From a phage, in sequence record PX123008.1: a DNA stretch of 44,682 bases. One strand, given 5' to 3'. The notes under the pieces were generated by a model. That model made no database searches, had not been told where the DNA came from, and was given only the letters and a program-made list of their open reading frames with translations. A program made the position numbers and the translations under genes. This document shows, in pieces, positions 3,490 through 24,564 of the stretch; position 1 is the first letter of the stretch; the number at the start of each line of letters is the position of its first letter.

Positions 3490-4576
3490 TCAATATATGG
3501 CGGATCGAATGATTCGCCGTCACATCTTCACCCAGCGCCTGAGCAATGACCAGGCGCGTAGGGTGCTGGCTATGTGGGAGAAGTTCCGGCCCACGTTACT
3601 GGGTAAGCTGACCGAGTTACTTGATGGCAGAAAGTCCATGAACAACAAGGCACTTACCACTCTGTTAACGCAACTCGACAAGACCGTTAAATCAGAACTG
3701 CGCACCGAGTTTAAGGCGCTGGCAGAAAGCCTTCAGGAGTTCGCCGACACGGAGGCTGATTATCTTGCTGACACACTAACGGCAGCGATCCAGCCCGCGG
3801 TCGCCGTACCTGCTGTTGAGGTGGTGGGCGTAGTGACCGGCGCGCAGATCGCAGCGACGGCTATGAAAAACCCGTTCCAGGGTAACACCATGATGCAGTG
3901 GCCCGATTCACTTTCCGAGTGGACCAGGACGCAGATCGGCAATCAGGTGCGCGCCGGATTCATCCAGGGCAAGCCGACGATGGAAATTATTGCGGACGTG
4001 AGGCGCGCGCTAGGCGGTCGTAGTGCGCAAGCAATATCAAGCGTTGTTAAGTCCGCGGTCAACCACTATGCGGCGACCGCCCGCGAATTAATGGTAAAAG
4101 CTAATGACGATATTCTCGAAGGTCGCCAATGGTTGGCTACATTGGACACGCATACTTCTCCCATGTGCCAGCTACGCGATCGCCTGTTTTATCCGGTTGA
4201 TGTTACTCCCGACACAAAAGGGAAGCGCGGCGGAAAAGTGGTGGCGGGATCACAATATGGCGCTGGTCCGGGCAAGCTGCATTATTGCTGCCGTTCGACG
4301 GAGACGTGGAAAGTCAAAGGTATGGAATATTGGCCCAGTGGTAAGCGTCCGGCACTGAAGGCTGACGCAGGCAGATTGCTGAGTGAGCAGGTCGACGCGC
4401 AGACTGATTTCTTCTCATGGGTGCAGCGCCAGCCGCGCCATATCCTGGAAGAATTATACGGGGTGCAACGAGCCGACCAGATTATGCGAGGCGTGAAAGT
4501 GCCGAAGATGTTCACCGATACGGGCGAACTAATGACTATTGCGCAGCTTAAAAACAGGGGGCTATGGCGTGATTAA
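3473..4576 (+). CDS. head morphogenesis protein (Mu gpF / SPP1 gp7-like minor head protein)
   Basis: 367 aa overlapping the portal 3' end; conserved position after portal; assignment from memory. Confidence 0.6.
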   Translation: MAKTINQYMADRMIRRHIFTQRLSNDQARRVLAMWEKFRPTLLGKLTELLDGRKSMNNKALTTLLTQLDKTVKSELRTEFKALAESLQEFADTEADYLADTLTAAIQPAVAVPAVEVVGVVTGAQIAATAMKNPFQGNTMMQWPDSLSEWTRTQIGNQVRAGFIQGKPTMEIIADVRRALGGRSAQAISSVVKSAVNHYAATARELMVKANDDILEGRQWLATLDTHTSPMCQLRDRLFYPVDVTPDTKGKRGGKVVAGSQYGAGPGKLHYCCRSTETWKVKGMEYWPSGKRPALKADAGRLLSEQVDAQTDFFSWVQRQPRHILEELYGVQRADQIMRGVKVPKMFTDTGELMTIAQLKNRGLWRD

Positions 4577-4877
4577 ATACGCGGCGATCGGATTGGTAAT
4601 AGGTCTGGCGGTTGGATTCTGGCAGGGTGATTCCTACCGCACTGGCGTTGAGGCGAGAGCGGCGCAAGAAGCGCAAGCGAAAGCCCAACGGCAGCAAACT
4701 AAGGTTGTCGAGGGGGCAGTGCAGGCCGAACAGGCCCGCGATGTGGAATACCGGACTATCACGAAAGAGGTTGTGAAATATGTTACGCGTCCTAACCGTC
4801 CTGATTGCAGTTTTGATGCTGAGCGCGTGCGGATCAAGCAAAGCGCCATTGATGCCGCTAACCGAGTCGGTCTATAG
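4569..4877 (+). CDS. i-spanin (Rz-like)
   Basis: GTG start with AGGGGG RBS; N-terminal TM segment (IKYAAIGLVIGLAVGFW) followed by a charged coiled-coil-like periplasmic domain; fully overlaps the o-spanin ORF in another frame. Confidence 0.55.
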   Translation: MIKYAAIGLVIGLAVGFWQGDSYRTGVEARAAQEAQAKAQRQQTKVVEGAVQAEQARDVEYRTITKEVVKYVTRPNRPDCSFDAERVRIKQSAIDAANRVGL

Positions 4878-5010
4878 ACCTCCTTGCACCTTTGAGAATG
4901 CCTCGGCAGATCCAGACGAAGACTTGCTGGTTGATGTTAAGAATATGGAGTGTGGTGCTAAGCTAAGGGCGCAAGTGCTGGAGTTGCAGAAAATAATTCG
5001 GGGGCTGTGA
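4780..5010 (+). CDS. o-spanin (Rz1-like outer-membrane lipoprotein)
   Basis: 76 aa; signal peptide with lipobox LSAC; proline-rich mature part; starts inside the i-spanin ORF in the +1 frame. Confidence 0.6.
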   Translation: MLRVLTVLIAVLMLSACGSSKAPLMPLTESVYRPPCTFENASADPDEDLLVDVKNMECGAKLRAQVLELQKIIRGL

Positions 5011-17252: not shown

Positions 17253-17860
17253 CCACATTTAAATTATACGGCGTCTTAGGGCGTCGTTTTGGTAAAGTGC
17301 ACAAGCTGGATTGCTTCACCCCGGGCGAAGGTATCACAGGCCTATGCGTGAAGCTGCCTGGCTTACAGGACTTTCTAATGTCGGCCCACCTGGAAAATAT
17401 TATGTTCAAGGTGCGCAAAGGCAATCACACAATGACCGGATACGACGAGTTAGGAGAGTTCCACGGCGACCGCGTAGTTACCATCGCACCGGTTATGACC
17501 GGCGCAAAACGCGGACTAGGCCAATTACTGGCGGGCGTAGCCATCGTGGTGGCGTCGTTCTACACCGGCGGGCTTGCTACTGCCGCTTTCGGAGCTTCAG
17601 CCGCGACCGCTGCCGCTATCGGTACGGCAACGTTTTCGTTCGGGATGTCGATGGCGCTGGGTGGCGTTATGCAATTGCTGTCACCGCAACCGAAAGGATT
17701 GCAGACACGGCAGGACGTGGATAACAAGGCGTCTTATGCGTTCGGCGGACCGGTAAACACGACCGCGCAAGGTACGGCACTTGGTGTATTATGGGGCGAG
17801 CGTGAGATCGGCGGCGCTATTATTTCCGCCGGAATCGTAACCGAGGACTTGAACGAATGA
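17243..17860 (+). CDS. tail assembly protein (lambda gpI-like)
   Basis: 206 aa; start overlaps the gpK-like stop; hydrophobic glycine/alanine-rich C-terminal half; position between the K-like and J-like genes. Confidence 0.6.
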   Translation: MAMTTFKLYGVLGRRFGKVHKLDCFTPGEGITGLCVKLPGLQDFLMSAHLENIMFKVRKGNHTMTGYDELGEFHGDRVVTIAPVMTGAKRGLGQLLAGVAIVVASFYTGGLATAAFGASAATAAAIGTATFSFGMSMALGGVMQLLSPQPKGLQTRQDVDNKASYAFGGPVNTTAQGTALGVLWGEREIGGAIISAGIVTEDLNE

Positions 17861-20800
17861 CGATTATCTACGACGTCACAGGCCATAAAGGCGGAGGCGG
17901 CAAACAGCACACCCCACAGGAGACGCCTGACAGCCTGCATTCGCTGGCTAAAATCCGCATCTTGCTCGCACTGGGCGAAGGTGAGTTCGAAGGCATTACC
18001 GACCCTAACGAATTACGGCAGCGCGTATACCTGGACGGAACACCGATCCAGAACGCCGACCGATCCGAAAACTTCCCCGGCGCGCGCGTGGAGTTCCGTC
18101 CAGGCACACAGCACCAGGATGTGATCCACGGATTTTCCGCAGTGGAAAGCGAGCAAACAGTTGGCGTAAAACTGGAAAACGGCACGCCGTGGGTGCGCCA
18201 GATTAACGACACCAGTTTGGACGCCGTGCGCATTCGAATCGGCATTCCGGCCCTGTACACTAACGAAGATAATGGCGACCTGGTGGGCGGGCGCATTGAC
18301 TATAAAATCGTGGTGTATACGGATAACGCGGATCCGCGCGAGTTCCGCTTCTCTGCCGTCGGTAAGACAATGTCGCTGTACGAGCGCGACCACCGCATTG
18401 AGTTACCGCCGAACGTGAATACCGGCTGGCGCGTGGAGGTGCACCGCACGACGGCAGACTCCACATCGGCGAAAGTGGTCAATGATATTCGGGTGCAATC
18501 CATTACTGAGATTATCGACGCCCGCCTGCGATACCCGCTAACCGCGCTGTTGTTCGTGGAGTTCGACGCTAAGGCTTTCCAGAACATCCCGCGCGTGTCC
18601 ATCAAGTGCAAAGGACGTAAAGTGCTGGTGCCGAACAACTATGACCCGATTAGGCATACCTATTCGGGAAACTGGGATGGCACGTTTAAACGCGCATGGA
18701 CGGATAACCCGGCGTGGCACTGGTACGATATTTGTATTACTGAGCGCTTCGGCCTCGGTCGGCGTATCAAACCGCAAATGTTAAACCGGTACGCGCTCTA
18801 CCAGATTGCGCAGCGCTGCGATCAGCTGGTCAGTGACGGCAACGGCGGACGGGAAATCCGATTTAAGAATGATATGTACATTCAGTCACAGACGGATGCC
18901 TGGACCGTGCTTAAGGATTTAGCCGCTATCTTTGCCGGTATGACCTGGTGGGGAAATCAGATGTTGAATATCGTCAGTGACCAGCCGGTCGCAGCGGTAT
19001 CGCACACCATCACCAACGCCTCGGTCATTGATGGTAGATTCGACTACGCGTCCGGTAGCCAGAAAACTCGGTATTCCACGTTCGCGGTAGCATACGGCAA
19101 CCCGAAGAACCACTATGAAGACGCCATTGCTACGGGGCAGCGTGTCGAACTGGTACGCCGCCATAAGATTAACCGTCTGGATATAACGGCGATCGGCTGT
19201 ACGCGTGAGTCAGAAGCGCAACGACGTGGGCACTGGGCGCTAATCTCCAACCAGCTTGACCAGCAAGTTAGCTTTAAGGTTGGCATGGAGGGACTTTTCT
19301 TTATTCCGGGTAGCGTAGTCGCGATCGCCGATACAAACATTTCTGGCGGCTTCGAGACACGCGGCGGTCGCCTGTTGTCAGATCCAGGCACGCGTACTGT
19401 ACTGAACACAGACAGCGAAATCACGTTCCGCCCAGGTGATAAATTCCTGGTACGCACCGATAGCGGTAGTGTGGAGACTCGCGAGATCGCCAGCGTCAAC
19501 GGCAACAAGGTTACGCTAAAAACCGCACTGGACGCCGACCCTATTCCAGACCAGCCGTTTTGCGTTGATGGCGACGATATCCAGTTGCAGAAATTCCGCA
19601 TCACCGACCTGGAATATGACGACTCTACCAGCACTTTTTCAGTGCGCGGGATCGAGTACAACGATAGCAAATATGATGCCGTTGATAATGGCGCTCGCCT
19701 TGACCCTGGTATTTTCACGCAAGTGCCAGACGGCGTAATGAAGGGGCCGGAGTCCGTGACCATCACCCCGTCGCAGATTTCATCGCAAGGCCAGCTAATC
19801 ACCAACGTGGATATTGTTTTCCCGCCGGTGAAAGATGCCGTGGTGTATGAAATACAGTGGCGACGTACCAGCTTGCAGAATATGGAAATCCAGTGGGGTA
19901 ACGACTGGGTGAACATCCCCCGCACGGCATCGAACGGTGCGCACATCCCGAACGTGTTTTCCGGTAACTATCAGGCACGCGTCCGCGCGATCGGTATGGG
20001 TGAGATTTCATCCCCGTGGGTGTCGTCTGCCATCACGCCGATCGAAGGTCGTCTCGGTGGGCTTAACGCGCCTATCATCACCAACGCGATTTCGGGCCTC
20101 CACCAAATTTTGTGGAAGTGGAACCACAACAACGCCGCGACGGATATTTCGTATACCGAGCTTGAGGTCCGCAAGCGGGGCGAAACGGAATGGAAGTTCT
20201 TGACCAACGTCCCATATCCGGGGTCGGACTATGCGCAAACGTCGCTGGAGTTCGGCATATACCAGCAGTTGCGCGCCCGCGTAGCGGATAAAATCGGCAA
20301 CCTGTCGGACTGGTCTGCCCCGTTTGAAGGCCAGGTGAGTGACAAAGTTGACGAGTACATGAAGGGGCTTGATGACGAGTTCTTGACTTCCGAGGATGGT
20401 AAACGCTTCCAGGAAGCGATCGACACCATGCCGCAAGGCATTTATGAGGCCATGCTCACCGACGCACAGCAGTTGTTTAACGCCCGCGCCGAGTATAAAG
20501 GGATTTATGCGGAAATAACGGTGGCATATAACGTGGCGGCGGACGCCCACAAGGCGGTCGCTCAACTGGAGACGTTGATCGGCACGCGCCTTGACGATGC
20601 TGAAGCGGCGATCCACACGTTGCAGACGGCGCAGAGTACGCAGGAACAAGCGTTCGCCCAGTACCAGCAAACTGTTGCCGCTAAGTTCGCGGAACAGGAA
20701 GCTGCCATCCAGCAGGTACAAACGGCAACGGCAGACGTAGCGGGCGCGCTGGCGGAGTACAAGACCCATGTAGCGGCGCAGTTCGACCAACAGTCCGCAG

Positions 20801-21279
20801 CTATTGAGCAGAAGATGACGTCTTCGTTTAACCATGCTGGCGGTAGTGCCACATACAGCCTTAAGGCTGGCGTGACGTATAACGGGACTTACTACGATGC
20901 CGGTATGCAGCTTTCGGTCGTGGCGGAAGGTGGCGCGGTTAAATCCCGCATCGCGTTCAAGGCTGACCAGTTCTACATCATGCACCCATCTAACGGGTCG
21001 CTTTCGTCTGCGTTTATTGTAGACGGCGGGGCGGTGTACATCGACACGGCACGCATCAAGGACGCGACTATCAACTTCGCGCAGATCACGGACACGCTGC
21101 AATCTAATAACTACGACGGCAGCACGCGAGGCTGGCGCTTAGGGAAAGATGGGACGTTTATCAACCTGGGAACCGGTAGCGGTGGCGGGGCGATGAAAAT
21201 GACGAATGACACAATCAGCGTAAAGGATTCTAACGGGGTTTTGCGGGTCCAGATTGGTAAAATCACGGGGGGTTGGTGA
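17857..21279 (+). CDS. central tail fibre / host specificity protein (lambda gpJ-like)
   Basis: 1140 aa; N-terminus HKGGGGKQHTPQE parallels lambda J GKGSSKGHTPRE; size and position after the I-like gene. Confidence 0.88.
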   Translation: MTIIYDVTGHKGGGGKQHTPQETPDSLHSLAKIRILLALGEGEFEGITDPNELRQRVYLDGTPIQNADRSENFPGARVEFRPGTQHQDVIHGFSAVESEQTVGVKLENGTPWVRQINDTSLDAVRIRIGIPALYTNEDNGDLVGGRIDYKIVVYTDNADPREFRFSAVGKTMSLYERDHRIELPPNVNTGWRVEVHRTTADSTSAKVVNDIRVQSITEIIDARLRYPLTALLFVEFDAKAFQNIPRVSIKCKGRKVLVPNNYDPIRHTYSGNWDGTFKRAWTDNPAWHWYDICITERFGLGRRIKPQMLNRYALYQIAQRCDQLVSDGNGGREIRFKNDMYIQSQTDAWTVLKDLAAIFAGMTWWGNQMLNIVSDQPVAAVSHTITNASVIDGRFDYASGSQKTRYSTFAVAYGNPKNHYEDAIATGQRVELVRRHKINRLDITAIGCTRESEAQRRGHWALISNQLDQQVSFKVGMEGLFFIPGSVVAIADTNISGGFETRGGRLLSDPGTRTVLNTDSEITFRPGDKFLVRTDSGSVETREIASVNGNKVTLKTALDADPIPDQPFCVDGDDIQLQKFRITDLEYDDSTSTFSVRGIEYNDSKYDAVDNGARLDPGIFTQVPDGVMKGPESVTITPSQISSQGQLITNVDIVFPPVKDAVVYEIQWRRTSLQNMEIQWGNDWVNIPRTASNGAHIPNVFSGNYQARVRAIGMGEISSPWVSSAITPIEGRLGGLNAPIITNAISGLHQILWKWNHNNAATDISYTELEVRKRGETEWKFLTNVPYPGSDYAQTSLEFGIYQQLRARVADKIGNLSDWSAPFEGQVSDKVDEYMKGLDDEFLTSEDGKRFQEAIDTMPQGIYEAMLTDAQQLFNARAEYKGIYAEITVAYNVAADAHKAVAQLETLIGTRLDDAEAAIHTLQTAQSTQEQAFAQYQQTVAAKFAEQEAAIQQVQTATADVAGALAEYKTHVAAQFDQQSAAIEQKMTSSFNHAGGSATYSLKAGVTYNGTYYDAGMQLSVVAEGGAVKSRIAFKADQFYIMHPSNGSLSSAFIVDGGAVYIDTARIKDATINFAQITDTLQSNNYDGSTRGWRLGKDGTFINLGTGSGGGAMKMTNDTISVKDSNGVLRVQIGKITGGW

Positions 21280-21282
21280 TAT

Positions 21283-21300
21283 AGGGGCTTCGGCCCCTTC
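21283..21300. terminator. bidirectional hairpin between convergent genes
   Basis: GGGGC-ttcg-GCCCC between the J-like stop and the minus-strand gene at 21303. Confidence 0.45.
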
Positions 21301-21302
21301 TA

Positions 21303-21917
21303 TCAATCGTATTTAGCCGCATCTATTGCGAGTATGGATGGTGAATAATAAACGCCGAGCGGCCCTGGTGTGTGGGCTACTTGCTTAGATATCGAATAAA
21401 TGCCTGTTCCGGATGCGCCGGATTGTGATTCATAAATCGCGTGCCCACCAATCTGAGGGGTGGGAACCGAGTTTATTGCCGTTTGTTGTGGCGATACGGC
21501 ACATGTATACCCCAGATTAACATCAAAAGACAGACCATTTATCGGTATTTGGTGGGCCTCCAGCGGCAGCATTTTCCCGTGGTACACCATATTCCCCGCA
21601 GAATTATAGAATGCGATCCCGTAGTCTCCTGGCGGGGTAACCATATCACTAAAAGCATAAACCTTAATCCATCCTGGATTGTCAGTTTTGTCTAGCCGGA
21701 GCGCATGATAACCACCATTATTTATGTGGGTGAATGCCGTGTATGCACGCCCTCCCATCCTTACAAAGAAAAAGCACACGCGATCGAATGGTATTGGCGT
21801 TGTAAAAACAGAACCGCTATACACCCCCATATCACCGCGACTTATCAAATTAACAGGCGTAAAATCCGGGCTTAACCAAATGGACCCATCCGGCTTTGTG
21901 ATCTGCATTCCGTACAT
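21303..21917 (-). CDS. hypothetical protein
   Basis: 204 aa, ATG with GGGGG RBS; possible own promoter TTTAAC-N17-TATATA upstream. Confidence 0.5.
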   Translation of the reverse strand: MYGMQITKPDGSIWLSPDFTPVNLISRGDMGVYSGSVFTTPIPFDRVCFFFVRMGGRAYTAFTHINNGGYHALRLDKTDNPGWIKVYAFSDMVTPPGDYGIAFYNSAGNMVYHGKMLPLEAHQIPINGLSFDVNLGYTCAVSPQQTAINSVPTPQIGGHAIYESQSGASGTGIYSISKQVAHTPGPLGVYYSPSILAIDAAKYD

Positions 21918-21918
21918 G

Positions 21919-22200
21919 CTACCCCCAATACGTATATATAAATCTTGATTCGCCAGCGTTAAAGCCGCTCCAGGAGACAGTGTTGTCGCTTACGGATATC
22001 GATGGCGCACCCCATGATGTGCCGCTCCAGGTATGCGTACCAACGTAACCTGCCTTTAAACTTTTCCCCGGCGGACGGTTGTGATACGTCTTGCTCCCGG
22101 ATGGTTGTGTGAATTTGTCAAGAAAAAAAACCGGCGTTAACAGGCCGGTGACGTCACGGCCATGTTCGTCATAAATCGCGTACCCATAGTTACTCACTTT
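21919..22200 (-). CDS. hypothetical ORF, doubtful (contains a terminator)
   Basis: open frame with only GTG/TTG starts; a hairpin plus T8 terminator lies inside it. Confidence 0.2.
   Translation of the reverse strand, partial: KVSNYGYAIYDEHGRDVTGLLTPVFFLDKFTQPSGSKTYHNRPPGKSLKAGYVGTHTWSGTSWGAPSISVSDNTVSWSGFNAGESRFIYTYWG
22105..22134 (-). terminator. rho-independent terminator downstream of the lipoprotein gene
   Basis: minus-strand ACCGGC-ctgttaac-GCCGGT followed by TTTTTTTT. Confidence 0.6.
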
Positions 22201-22459
22201 TACACTCCACAATTTCAAATTTATCTTCGCTTTGCCATCTGTGAACGAAAGTTACAAATTTCTGTGATGGGGCTACCCGGTATTGTTTTTCGCCAAATCG
22301 GTTTTCACGCACCGCGTTTAGTTTAACAGGGTAGCTATCGTTTACGGGGAATGTTTTAACTACATATTGGCCTGTGCAATTAATGGCCTTGTAGTTGCCG
22401 TCTGGTGACGCGGAGCAACCGGACAAAAGAACCGCACAAATCATAATTAAAGTTTTCAT
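22190..22459 (-). CDS. small lipoprotein, candidate Cor/Llp-like superinfection-exclusion protein
   Basis: 89 aa, AGGAG RBS; signal peptide with lipobox LSGC; two further cysteines; sits between the J-like and tail-fibre genes. Confidence 0.55.
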   Translation of the reverse strand: MKTLIMICAVLLSGCSASPDGNYKAINCTGQYVVKTFPVNDSYPVKLNAVRENRFGEKQYRVAPSQKFVTFVHRWQSEDKFEIVECKSE

Positions 22460-22539
22460 GGTATCATCTCCTATATTTGGTTGAGTTTTAGTATTACACC
22501 GCTCGATCAAGAATGCAACCAATTTACGAGGATTTAGCT

Positions 22540-23925
22540 ATGGCGGCGGGAACATTATCCGTAACGAATAACAGCAAGGCAGTTGCAGGGGTTGACACGA
22601 CGTTCACCGCGTTTAAAGCTGGCGACTTCTTAACTCTGGTGGTGGGGCAAGTGCCTTACACCGTGGCAATCGCATCCATCGAAAGCGACACCGCGCTTAC
22701 GCTTGTGCTGCCGTTCGACGGACCCACGGCAACCGGCCTCGCGTGGGATGGCGTTAAGCGCGATACCATGTCACTGGCAACGATGGGCGTTACCGTACAG
22801 GCGCAGAAAGCACTGCGCTTGATGATTGCGGACGAAAACAACTGGCGTGCAATCTTCGGAGACGAAGAAGAAATCACGGTAACGCTGCCGAACGGGCAAG
22901 TTATGCAGGGTATGTCGTGGGGATACCTGTCGCAATTGCTGAAGGAAGTTGACCCCGTTGAAATGCGCAACCTGCAACAACAAGCCGCGGCATCTGAAGC
23001 AGCAGCGCAAGGATTTCGCGATCAGGCCAATGCTGCGAAGTTAGACGCACAAGCCGCGCGCGACGCGGCAAAGACCTCCGAGACTAACGCCGAGCAATGG
23101 GCGCAAAGCGTGAACGCCAACAACCTGCTAACAAAATCCGGCAACCTGCTAACAAAATCCGGCAACCTGGCGGGCATTACGGATTCGGCGGAGGCTCGTA
23201 ACAATCTTGGTCTGGGTCCTTTGTCTACAGCAAATGTGGTACCGGTAGAAAACGGTGGTACGGGAGTAACCAGGGCCGAGGATCTATGGCCTGTAGTTCG
23301 ACCTGTCGACGTGTTCGGAAACGTAGGTCACCTTATAGGTATTCCTAACGGTATTACACGAAATCATATCTGGCTGTGGAACACCGCAGATACACCACCT
23401 GCCGGTTGGGTTAACTACATGGAGGGGGGTTGGTTTAATGGTGTATGGCGTTTAGGTGGGGTTCGTGGCGGTAACGAGAACTTATCACATGCGCAGATTA
23501 CCGTTAATAGCGGTCAGGGTTCGGAAGCTCACTTCATGTTTTATCCTGATGGTTCCGCGCTCGCCGCAAACTGGGTGTCAACATCTGACCCACGTGTCAA
23601 GTCTCTGGTTGAGGTTATACCGGACCCTCTTGATTTGATGCGCAGTATCCGGGGTTATTCGTGGTACTACGAGCATACTGGTAGTAAGGGCTTCGGGTTC
23701 CTGTCTTCCGAGGTGAAGGTTAACTTCCGCGGGGCTGTTAAGACATTCGGTGATGCTGAGTTGCCCGATGGCACCGTAGTCCATGATGTAGAAGGTGTTG
23801 ATGTATCTGGTGTATCTGCCGCCCTCCACCATGAAGCCATTCTTGCTTTGATGGATAAAATGGAGGATATGCAGAAGGAACTGGAGGAGTTGAAAACTGC
23901 CGTAGCGGCCAAGACTAAAGCATAA
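22540..23925 (+). CDS. tail fibre protein
   Basis: ATG with GAGGA RBS 8 nt upstream (the track start at 22513 has no RBS); contains an in-frame NLLTKSG x2 repeat; 3' end duplicated. Confidence 0.65.
   Translation: MAAGTLSVTNNSKAVAGVDTTFTAFKAGDFLTLVVGQVPYTVAIASIESDTALTLVLPFDGPTATGLAWDGVKRDTMSLATMGVTVQAQKALRLMIADENNWRAIFGDEEEITVTLPNGQVMQGMSWGYLSQLLKEVDPVEMRNLQQQAAASEAAAQGFRDQANAAKLDAQAARDAAKTSETNAEQWAQSVNANNLLTKSGNLLTKSGNLAGITDSAEARNNLGLGPLSTANVVPVENGGTGVTRAEDLWPVVRPVDVFGNVGHLIGIPNGITRNHIWLWNTADTPPAGWVNYMEGGWFNGVWRLGGVRGGNENLSHAQITVNSGQGSEAHFMFYPDGSALAANWVSTSDPRVKSLVEVIPDPLDLMRSIRGYSWYYEHTGSKGFGFLSSEVKVNFRGAVKTFGDAELPDGTVVHDVEGVDVSGVSAALHHEAILALMDKMEDMQKELEELKTAVAAKTKA
23121..23162. repeat. 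21-bp in-frame tandem repeat inside the tail fibre gene
   Basis: caacctgctaacaaaatccgg twice, encoding NLLTKSG twice. Confidence 0.9.
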
Positions 23926-23981
23926 GGAGAAAGGGCCATACGGCCCAGACTAAAGCATAAGGAGAAAGGGCCATACGGCCC
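23912..23981. repeat. 35-bp tandem duplication covering the tail fibre stop codon and terminator hairpin
   Basis: agactaaagcataaggagaaagggccatacggccc twice; only the second copy is followed by T9. Confidence 0.9.
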
Positions 23982-23990
23982 TTTTTTTTT
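23966..23990 (+). terminator. rho-independent terminator after the tail fibre gene
   Basis: GGGCC-atac-GGCCC hairpin followed by T9. Confidence 0.6.
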
Positions 23991-24564
23991 AGTTTGAGTT
24001 TTCCCAATCCATTTTGCGCCTCACCAGCGGGCTTTCGTAGTATTCCTTACCTTCAACTTCCACTAAAGGCCAATCGTTCACGATCACGTATGGCTCTGCT
24101 ATATCCTCAATCACACCGCTGGCGCTATGTTGTCCGAACGACACACCGACCAGAATAACACCGGCAACTCGACGAGCAAGATACTCGCGAGCGCAACGTG
24201 CCTCGACCAGTCCTCGACGGATGCCGCTGGTGGCTTTGACCTCATAGGTCCAGACGGCATCAATCATATGTTCGCGGAAGTCAGGGCCGGATTTTACCTT
24301 GCGCTTGCCAACCATGATAATATCGCCGCGGTCGATAGTGTTAGCGCTAAACAGGCCGGTACGCATTAGCAAACCTTGCGGGATACAGCTACGCCCGCCC
24401 GCCTGCCCTTCGAGGTACATGCCCGCAAACATTTCGCCCAGCACACCGACGAGTCTGCTTTGCTTGCACGCGTCGGACTTTAAGCGCCACTGATCAAACT
24501 CGATGCTTGCAATCATTGCCGCCAGGTGGAATTGTTTACCGGTTATTTCATACTCGCCGTACAT
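23989..24564 (-). CDS. hypothetical protein, possible PD-(D/E)xK-type nuclease
   Basis: 191 aa, GAGGG RBS; weak D...EVK pattern (IDAVWTYEVK); last gene of the minus-strand early block. Confidence 0.4.
   Translation of the reverse strand: MYGEYEITGKQFHLAAMIASIEFDQWRLKSDACKQSRLVGVLGEMFAGMYLEGQAGGRSCIPQGLLMRTGLFSANTIDRGDIIMVGKRKVKSGPDFREHMIDAVWTYEVKATSGIRRGLVEARCAREYLARRVAGVILVGVSFGQHSASGVIEDIAEPYVIVNDWPLVEVEGKEYYESPLVRRKMDWENSN

Follow-up and report, generated by a model that had tools for sequence, protein, structure and literature searches.

The phage DNA of sequence record PX123008.1, 44,682 nucleotides (nt) in length and referred to here in its entirety as the window, is a PTXU06-like Dhillonvirus that carries, on its minus strand, a small gene for a lipoprotein precursor of 89 amino acids (aa). 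We find that the mature part of this lipoprotein belongs to an exchangeable cassette of receptor-binding genes of the BtuB type, and that it is probably the superinfection-exclusion partner of that cassette, which by analogy with known receptor-blocking lipoproteins would act by binding and jamming BtuB. Over this region, identity is 97% with the Dhillonviruses PTXU06 and Zar3M and 92% with BEK2-2, and in the public genome of PTXU06 the lipoprotein gene is labelled hypothetical. The features discussed below are collected in Table 1.

The open reading frame (ORF) of the lipoprotein begins with an ATG at 22459, ends with a TAA at 22192..22190, and its translation reads MKTLIMICAVLLSGCSASPDG...VECKSE. 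The N-terminus of the precursor is MKTLIMICAVLLSGC, followed after the lipobox by SASPDG, and it contains the anticipated elements of a lipoprotein signal peptide, namely Lys2, a hydrophobic core and the lipobox L12-S13-G14-C15. Because the residue at position +2 after the lipobox Cys15 is a serine, the E. coli sorting rule indicates that the lipoprotein should be sorted to the outer membrane. In an alignment of 28 sequences of the family, C28 and C86 of the mature protein are invariant, as is the lipobox cysteine, and a fourth cysteine, C8, lies within the signal peptide. An earlier note on this DNA had described an 89-aa minus-strand protein with a signal peptide, the lipobox LSGC and two further cysteines, and direct reading of the ORF, the lipobox and C28/C86 bears out that description. 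Full-length relatives of the lipoprotein were detected by tblastn in more than 130 phage records, and therefore the gene is real. At least 28 distinct sequences make up the family, and conservation extends over the full length of the protein down to ~28% identity in four or more phage lineages.

Comparison with other Dhillonviruses places the mature lipoprotein in a cassette of ~1.1 kb, at about 21181/21300..22415, the left limit of which includes the C-terminal tail of the J-like protein. Homology to the FhuA-type phages jat and GeorgBuechner ends at 21299 and homology to the LptD-type phage Oekolampad ends at 21148, and it comes back at 22411..22416, in the lipobox codons. Homology to the Hanrivervirus KarlJaspers is the exact complement, covering 21187..22420 at 76%, and an E. 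coli prophage shares 21181..22391 at 78%, although the J proteins of prophage and window have no more than 30% identity. Given these homology breaks, the mobile unit consists of the last ~33 codons of J, the genes for a 204-aa and a 92-aa protein, and the codons of the mature lipoprotein. By sequence comparison, the signal peptide and the DNA upstream of it belong to the backbone and not to the cassette. At 22411..22600, the codons of the signal peptide, the intergenic 53 bp and the lateral tail-fibre gene's 5' end are 90-95% conserved in ~90 Dhillonvirus records, whichever cassette is carried, and the joint of the cassette is therefore located at the lipobox.

The same cassette is found in Hanrivervirus, in Warwickvirus and in an E. 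coli prophage. Its three genes stand in the same order in KarlJaspers, phiE31-2, FritzSarasin, two IMG/VR contigs and the E. coli prophage, and a scan of IMG/VR yielded only three further loci. Between the window and KarlJaspers the lipoprotein, the 92-aa protein and the 204-aa protein are 81%, 82% and 84% identical, respectively, and between the window and FritzSarasin the corresponding values are 56%, 72% and 62%. Pairwise identities of the lipoprotein correlate with those of the 204-aa protein (r = 0.98, a value that rests on only two subclades). The C-terminal motif of J follows the cassette subclade, whereas the remainder of J is 94-100% identical among Dhillonviruses regardless of the cassette, and the last ~33 codons of J probably encode a docking tail for the receptor-binding proteins. 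Co-variation with the C-terminal domain of J had been put forward in the earlier note as a check on the function of the lipoprotein; the tail of J and the tail-tip genes do move and diverge with the mature lipoprotein, but the bulk of J does not.

The receptor type of the cassette is indicated by phages whose receptors have been determined. For KarlJaspers (Bas06) and FritzSarasin (Bas04) the terminal receptor was shown experimentally to be BtuB (S5 Table, PMC8594841), and both of these BtuB-dependent small siphoviruses of the BASEL collection carry the three-gene cassette with the order unchanged. Four unrelated families of receptor-binding protein, for FhuA, BtuB, LptD and YncD, are reported at this locus, each alongside either one 'accessory protein' or two, and a protein is assigned to the BtuB type if it has >30% identity at >99% coverage to the protein of a BtuB-dependent phage and is encoded directly downstream of gpJ (bioRxiv 10.64898/2026.04.02.716166). 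With full-length identities of 84% to Bas06 and 62% to Bas04, the 204-aa protein is assigned to the BtuB type of the receptor-binding locus in both comparisons. The FhuA-dependent BASEL Dhillonviruses Bas15-17 have, in place of the window lipoprotein, a 72-aa Cor-type protein that is annotated as a super-infection exclusion protein in FhuA-type Dhillonviruses, and Oekolampad, which uses LptD, encodes a 73-aa lipoprotein of its own before a receptor-binding protein of 321 aa. In addition, a Cor-like protein was noted in BtuB-dependent Tempevirinae in the 2026 KanT1 paper. Homologues of the 92-aa protein are T1 gp32 and N15 gp22, and those of the 204-aa protein are T1 gp31 and N15 gp23; Pfam gave no significant match for either of these proteins or for the lipoprotein. 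The lipoprotein probably has the 204-aa/92-aa pair, and not the body of J, as its receptor-binding partner, and its likely target is BtuB. No receptor phenotype data for the window phage or for PTXU06 were found in the literature.

A match to Cor was followed as a lead to the function of the lipoprotein, and the 'Cor' label of the precursor rests on its signal peptide. The precursor matches the Cor family phrog_1119 of PHROGs at E 3.9e-8, but the mature lipoprotein, searched after removal of the signal peptide, has no match to phrog_1119 at E <= 1, whereas mature T1 Cor as a control matches at 1e-20; only phrog_27799, of unknown function, remains for the mature lipoprotein, at E 1.5e-3. Likewise, the NCBIfam Cor model NF047972 has no match at E <= 1 to either the precursor or the mature protein, with the T1 Cor control scoring 55.8 bits versus a cut-off of 31. 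Alignment by tblastn to Dhillonvirus Cor proteins (37-39%, E ~1e-5) is concentrated in the shared N-terminus, and hhalign of the mature domain against Cor covers 51 columns, from the first to the last conserved cysteine, with a probability of 29.7% and P 5.6e-4. The PHROG match was rejected as a sign of homology to Cor, given its loss without the signal peptide and the silence of the curated model, and since common descent is possible but unproven by the mature-domain comparisons we do not file the lipoprotein as a Cor member. There is a likeness in architecture. Cor (of T1, phi80, N15, HK022 and the FhuA-type Dhillonviruses) is also a small outer-membrane lipoprotein with a cysteine pair that brackets the mature domain at a parallel spacing, its gene lies beside gp22/gp23-like tail-tip genes directly downstream of J, and in Dhillonviruses it occupies the identical slot, having the signal peptide MKTLIMICAVLLSGC and the 53 bp of upstream DNA in common with the window. 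Differences include the length of the mature domain, which is 75 aa in the window and ~57-59 in Cor, and the transcription of Cor alone and opposite to the two tail-tip genes, whereas the window lipoprotein leads them in one operon. Furthermore, Cor is linked to FhuA and the window lipoprotein to BtuB-type genes.

The Cor comparison bears on the possibility that the lipoprotein is an exclusion factor that acts on something else than BtuB, such as another outer-membrane protein, the TonB machinery or FhuA, and that its linkage to BtuB-type genes reflects co-transfer only. This would agree with the match of the precursor to the Cor PHROG and with the resemblance of the C-terminal tail of J to that of FhuA-type phages, and the window phage's own receptor is assigned from its relatives. 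We nonetheless regard it as unlikely, given that the Cor match does not survive removal of the signal peptide, that the curated Cor model is silent, and that the mature domain has been exchanged with BtuB-type genes in every backbone examined and never with FhuA- or LptD-type genes. The BASEL phages divide in the same manner, with Bas04 and Bas06 (BtuB) carrying the lipoprotein and Bas15-17 (FhuA) carrying Cor-type proteins instead.

Complex structures of receptor-blocking phage lipoproteins are available for two receptors, FhuA (Llp) and LptD (Rtp45). Llp binds a non-native conformation of the FhuA plug and thereby causes the extracellular loops EL7 and EL8 to close in across the binding site of the receptor-binding protein; its authors suggest that the same mechanism may apply to other TonB-dependent transporters. 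Rtp45 blocks LptD by direct displacement of loop EL4, as revealed by cryo-electron microscopy (bioRxiv 10.1101/2025.07.07.663478), and is a 35%-identical relative of the Oekolampad exclusion lipoprotein (PHROG 4281). The latter occupies the same slot in the same genus as the window lipoprotein, in both cases the exclusion gene leads the receptor-binding gene or genes in converging on J, and the N-terminal 16 aa of the two proteins are 94% identical (15/16 residues). However, their mature domains are unrelated, with mature Oekolampad lipoprotein matching phrog_4281 at 6e-27 and the window protein not matching it. Further differences are that LptD is not a TonB-dependent transporter and that Rtp45 acts by EL4 displacement rather than by plug-mediated allostery. 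T5 Llp (PDB 8A60 chain B), which blocks FhuA, has no significant sequence similarity to the window protein (hhalign P 0.078), and a PDB profile match to Llp at E 0.053 involves the signal peptide only.

A further comparison is provided by TrudiRoth, a T5-like phage that uses BtuB and encodes the 88-aa lipoprotein bas30_0205 (L017 8348..8614), annotated as superinfection-exclusion. Like the window protein, it has a Cys ... Cys-x-A-Y ... Cys scaffold (C...FCKAY...GDC), is encoded beside a receptor-binding gene and has BtuB as its presumed target, but it comes from another phage family, accompanies another receptor-binding protein, and shows no significant similarity by hhalign (P 0.08). Phage BF23 also has a receptor-blocking lipoprotein. 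The window family, Cor, Llp and the TrudiRoth protein have a scaffold in common that consists of an acylated Cys, a linker of 8-12 residues, the motif Cys-x-[AG]-x-Tyr and a Cys near the C-terminus. An AlphaFold2 model of the lipoprotein, built on the 28-sequence alignment (mean predicted local distance difference test score, pLDDT, of 82.9), is all-beta with a long hairpin and three short strands, and this predicted structure is compatible with an Llp-like fold, although unspecifically. Exhaustive HMMER searching of the mature domain against 1.84 billion representatives returned only five proteins, one of which was spurious, and no link to Cor or Llp, and the family is small. The spurious one, P0029, a protein of 728 aa with nine matched stretches, was rejected as a relative because it is a low-complexity tandem-repeat protein.

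Several points count against an exclusion factor directed at BtuB. By sequence, the mature domain does not significantly match Cor, Llp, Rtp45/Oekolampad or the T5-like BtuB-type lipoprotein, and the similarity to Cor or Llp that the earlier note had named as a check was thus not borne out at the level of the mature domain. Foldseek of the model against the PDB returned nothing at E <= 0.001 and did not find Llp, and against BFVD it returned only lipoproteins of the same family from Providencia and Proteus phages, with no Cor models. Many generic barrels of the SH3/Tudor/BAH-like type have a Z equal to or above that of the match to the Llp fold. In the literature searched we found no experiment on the lipoprotein family, and the BtuB dependence of the window phage itself is deduced from the 84% identity of its 204-aa protein to that of Bas06. 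On the other side, the receptor-blocking role of the Cor/Llp type that had been guessed in the earlier note is favored by genomic context, namely the exclusion factors found as equivalents in the same slot and the co-inheritance of the mature domain with the BtuB-type genes.

In the mechanism that we propose, the lipoprotein would be expressed from a promoter within the 53 bp that precede the tail-fibre gene, and its translation would be coupled to that of the two downstream tail-tip receptor-binding genes. Sec would export the precursor, Cys15 would be acylated, and Lol would carry the lipoprotein to the outer membrane's inner leaflet, where the mature domain would form a compact beta-barrel with its ends probably tied by a Cys28-Cys86 disulphide. 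From there it would engage BtuB, a TonB-dependent transporter like FhuA, on its periplasmic face, by analogy with Llp on FhuA, and lock BtuB with its outer loops in a state that refuses the phage's own receptor-binding protein. As an outcome, BtuB-dependent phages would be excluded and progeny would not be wasted on cell debris. The binding to BtuB, the jamming from the periplasm, the disulphide and the timing of expression are steps that we infer. A more elaborate proposal, which we offer tentatively and consider possible rather than probable, is that the mature domain is an independent SH3-like beta-barrel that jams BtuB from the periplasm, and not a diverged Cor or Llp, and that the conserved codons of signal peptide and lipobox on the right and the last ~33 codons of J on the left are the joints at which receptor-binding genes and blocker are swapped together among unrelated backbones, namely Dhillonvirus, Drexlerviridae and a lambdoid prophage.

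The lipoprotein gene is the first of three in a minus-strand operon, followed by those for the 92-aa and the 204-aa protein, and this operon and the J-like gene are convergent. Both flanking genes are on the plus strand, the J-like gene at 17857..21279 and the tail-fibre gene at 22513..23925. The start of the 92-aa gene overlaps the stop of the lipoprotein gene by 8 nt, a gap of one base follows its TAG stop before the ATG of the 204-aa gene at 21917, and the 204-aa gene stops at 21303, which leaves 24 nt to the J-like gene's end on the opposite strand. In the prophage copy of the 92-aa gene the codon equivalent to the window GTG is an ATG, which confirms the GTG as the start. The location between the J-like and tail fibre genes given in the earlier note is correct as to the flanks, but two further minus-strand genes separate the lipoprotein from J, and the picture of a stand-alone gene with its own terminator has to be abandoned, as the lipoprotein leads an operon and is not monocistronic.

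An alternative is that the lipoprotein is an accessory factor in host recognition or infection rather than in exclusion, aiding DNA entry, modifying the envelope or helping the receptor-binding proteins to mature. Its co-transcription and translational coupling with two genes of the receptor-binding locus would suit such a role, and neighbours of this kind have been named accessory proteins for host specificity (bioRxiv 10.64898/2026.04.02.716166). However, a lipoprotein exported by Sec and Lol is kept apart from virion assembly in the cytoplasm, and a protein made after infection cannot aid the entry that precedes it. Moreover, the positional equivalents Cor and Rtp45/Oekolampad are exclusion factors, and the homologue in Proteus phage P59 lies among non-structural genes, away from any receptor-binding gene. 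We judge this explanation to be slightly less probable again than an exclusion factor with another target. Finally, a lysis lipoprotein (of the o-spanin or release-protein type) or a functionless hitch-hiking ORF is very improbable, for although o-spanins are likewise small outer-membrane lipoproteins with conserved cysteines, the window lipoprotein has no spanin family match, no i-spanin partner gene and no proline richness, and it persists at full length, at identities as low as ~28%, across four or more phage lineages in which its cysteines are invariant. The identity as an o-spanin was rejected given the complete spanin pair at 4539..5010 and the lack of a spanin match, and the existence of this separate pair means that the lipoprotein is not the lysis lipoprotein. 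A six-frame regular-expression scan of the window found one other good lipoprotein start, that of the Rz1-type spanin at 4780..5010.

Expression of the exclusion partner would depend on a promoter of its own. A minus-strand start site is needed near the lipoprotein gene because the gene to the right is on the opposite strand and a hairpin at 23933..23991 would stop incoming minus-strand transcripts. This terminator-like hairpin, scored on both strands, is located between the end of the tail-fibre gene and a minus-strand 191-aa gene, and would insulate the lipoprotein operon from upstream minus-strand transcription. The earlier note had reported a sigma70-like promoter, TTGCAT-N16-TAATAC, at 22478..22505. 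Both hexamers are present, but ~13 nt away, at 22518..22491, and in this reading they constitute a 3/6 + 3/6 match, of which there are ~69 per kb per strand in the window, a level expected by chance. A shift of one base gives TTGCAT-N17-(TGt)AATACT, and sites of that quality occur at ~0.5 per kb per strand. The hexamers and all of the sequence downstream of the -10 are kept in Oekolampad and GeorgBuechner, with a variable spacer; a consensus promoter scan made no call at this candidate.

The intrinsic terminator that the earlier note had assigned to 22105..22134 is in fact a hairpin at 22149..22121 within the 92-aa gene. Its stem, at 22149..22130, has 6 bp with a loop of 8 nt, the T-run extends to ~22121, and the sequence comprises the codons for VTGLLTPVFFLD. 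The folding energy of -10.9 kcal/mol is ordinary (z = -0.82), with 36 of 200 shuffles folding as well, and the number of terminator-like sites in the region, 5 versus 3.4 +/- 1.8 in shuffled sequence, is not in excess. The stem is mismatched in KarlJaspers and in the prophage copy, and its arms coincide with the codons that specify Thr-Gly (ACN GGN) and Pro-Val (CCN GTN) in a conserved peptide, so the stem is partly forced by the codons. Being intragenic, of ordinary energy and unconserved, it was rejected as a terminator that marks a gene boundary; a partial attenuating effect on transcription is possible.

Copies of the cassette, or of parts of it, are present in a variety of other backgrounds. 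The prophage copy is located on E. coli contig DAILGH010000013.1 (GCA_024611435.1; loci L014/L015, 6001..7169) and on Logan contigs, where it adjoins the chromosomal host genes abgA/abgB/abgT. Its lipoprotein, 92-aa and 204-aa proteins have 66-83% aa identity to those of the window, and the lipoprotein could bring about lysogenic conversion of the lysogen. When 5,426 complete E. coli genomes of RefSeq were searched by blastn with the cassette, no match was obtained; the prophage copy is known from a draft assembly. Five records of 49,946 bp labelled 'Campylobacter phage' (MG065643, MG065649, MG065657, MG065680 and MG065681) contain this cassette of E. coli type at 78% nt and 73% aa identity. 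These records look like Drexlerviridae, and their label probably reflects a wrong host assignment, or else contamination of the samples. Full-length homologues of the 204-aa protein, at 42-44% identity, are encoded in ~100 records of Stx2-converting phages (e.g., 933W L0127) and in the Nonagvirus JenP1, and therefore this receptor-binding-locus family reaches well beyond the small virulent siphoviruses. In Providencia phage PSTCR7 (L008 5998..7231), the gene for a 31%-identical homologue of the lipoprotein overlaps the end of a J-like gene, and after it comes a gene for a 321-aa protein that has an N-terminus resembling the 92-aa protein and looks as if the two tail-tip proteins had been fused into one. 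The lipoprotein homologue of Proteus phage P59 (L009) is instead encoded among non-structural genes, away from the receptor-binding genes.

Table 1. Features of the lipoprotein locus and of the spanin pair, in window coordinates
Feature	Position	Strand	Basis and remarks
Lipoprotein precursor gene, 89 aa + stop	22190..22459	-	ORF and translation; candidate BtuB-directed superinfection-exclusion factor
Shine-Dalgarno sequence AGGAG	22468..22472	-	Direct reading; 8 nt 5' of the lipoprotein ATG
Signal peptide, residues 1-14, ending with LSG before Cys15	22418..22459	-	Dhillonvirus backbone, outside the cassette
Mature lipoprotein, 75 aa: Cys15 as acylated N-terminus (predicted), +2 Ser, Cys28/Cys86 pair	22193..22417	-	
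Exchangeable cassette versus other Dhillonviruses: 204-aa gene, 92-aa gene, mature-lipoprotein codons	21300..22415	.	DNA homology breaks
Last ~33 codons of the J-like gene	21181..21279	+	Homology starts at 21187 (KarlJaspers) and 21181 (prophage); co-varies with the cassette
92-aa gene	21919..22197	-	GTG start at 22197, GGAG 7 nt upstream; phrog_557, E 1.5e-18; tail-tip receptor-binding-locus protein
204-aa gene	21303..21917	-	phrog_425, E 2.4e-47; probable BtuB-binding receptor-binding protein
Candidate sigma-70 promoter TTGCAT-N17-(TGt)AATACT, extended -10	22490..22518	-	-35 hexamer shares bases with the start codon of the tail-fibre gene on the opposite strand
Hairpin ACCGGC-N8-GCCGGT and T-run	22121..22149	-	Scan match; within the 92-aa gene
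Rz/Rz1-type spanin pair, overlapping	4539..4877 and 4780..5010	+	phrog_2536, E 4.5e-35; phrog_5672, E 2e-25

The type of locus and the idea of a cognate exclusion lipoprotein have already been published (PMC8594841, PMC11990801, PMC13164509, bioRxiv 10.1101/2025.07.07.663478, 10.64898/2026.04.02.716166). Here, we have reported the signal-peptide basis of the Cor label, the precise joints of the cassette at the lipobox and at the J tail, and the presence of the cassette in a fourth, temperate backbone. Where full-length profiles are used, a 'Cor' annotation can be due to nothing but the signal peptide. The clean boundaries of the cassette offer guidance for the re-targeting of phages, as receptor-binding genes and the matching blocker are swappable as one unit. 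We found no tested BtuB-directed lipoprotein from small siphoviruses in the literature. If the proposed role is true, the 'jammed TonB-dependent transporter' mechanism would be extended to a second transporter, and cross-exclusion would be easier to predict for BtuB-dependent phages that are combined in cocktails. The lipoprotein would then be a natural and specific inhibitor of BtuB that affects vitamin B12 uptake, E colicins and BtuB-dependent phages, and would provide a handle on B12 uptake and colicin E entry.

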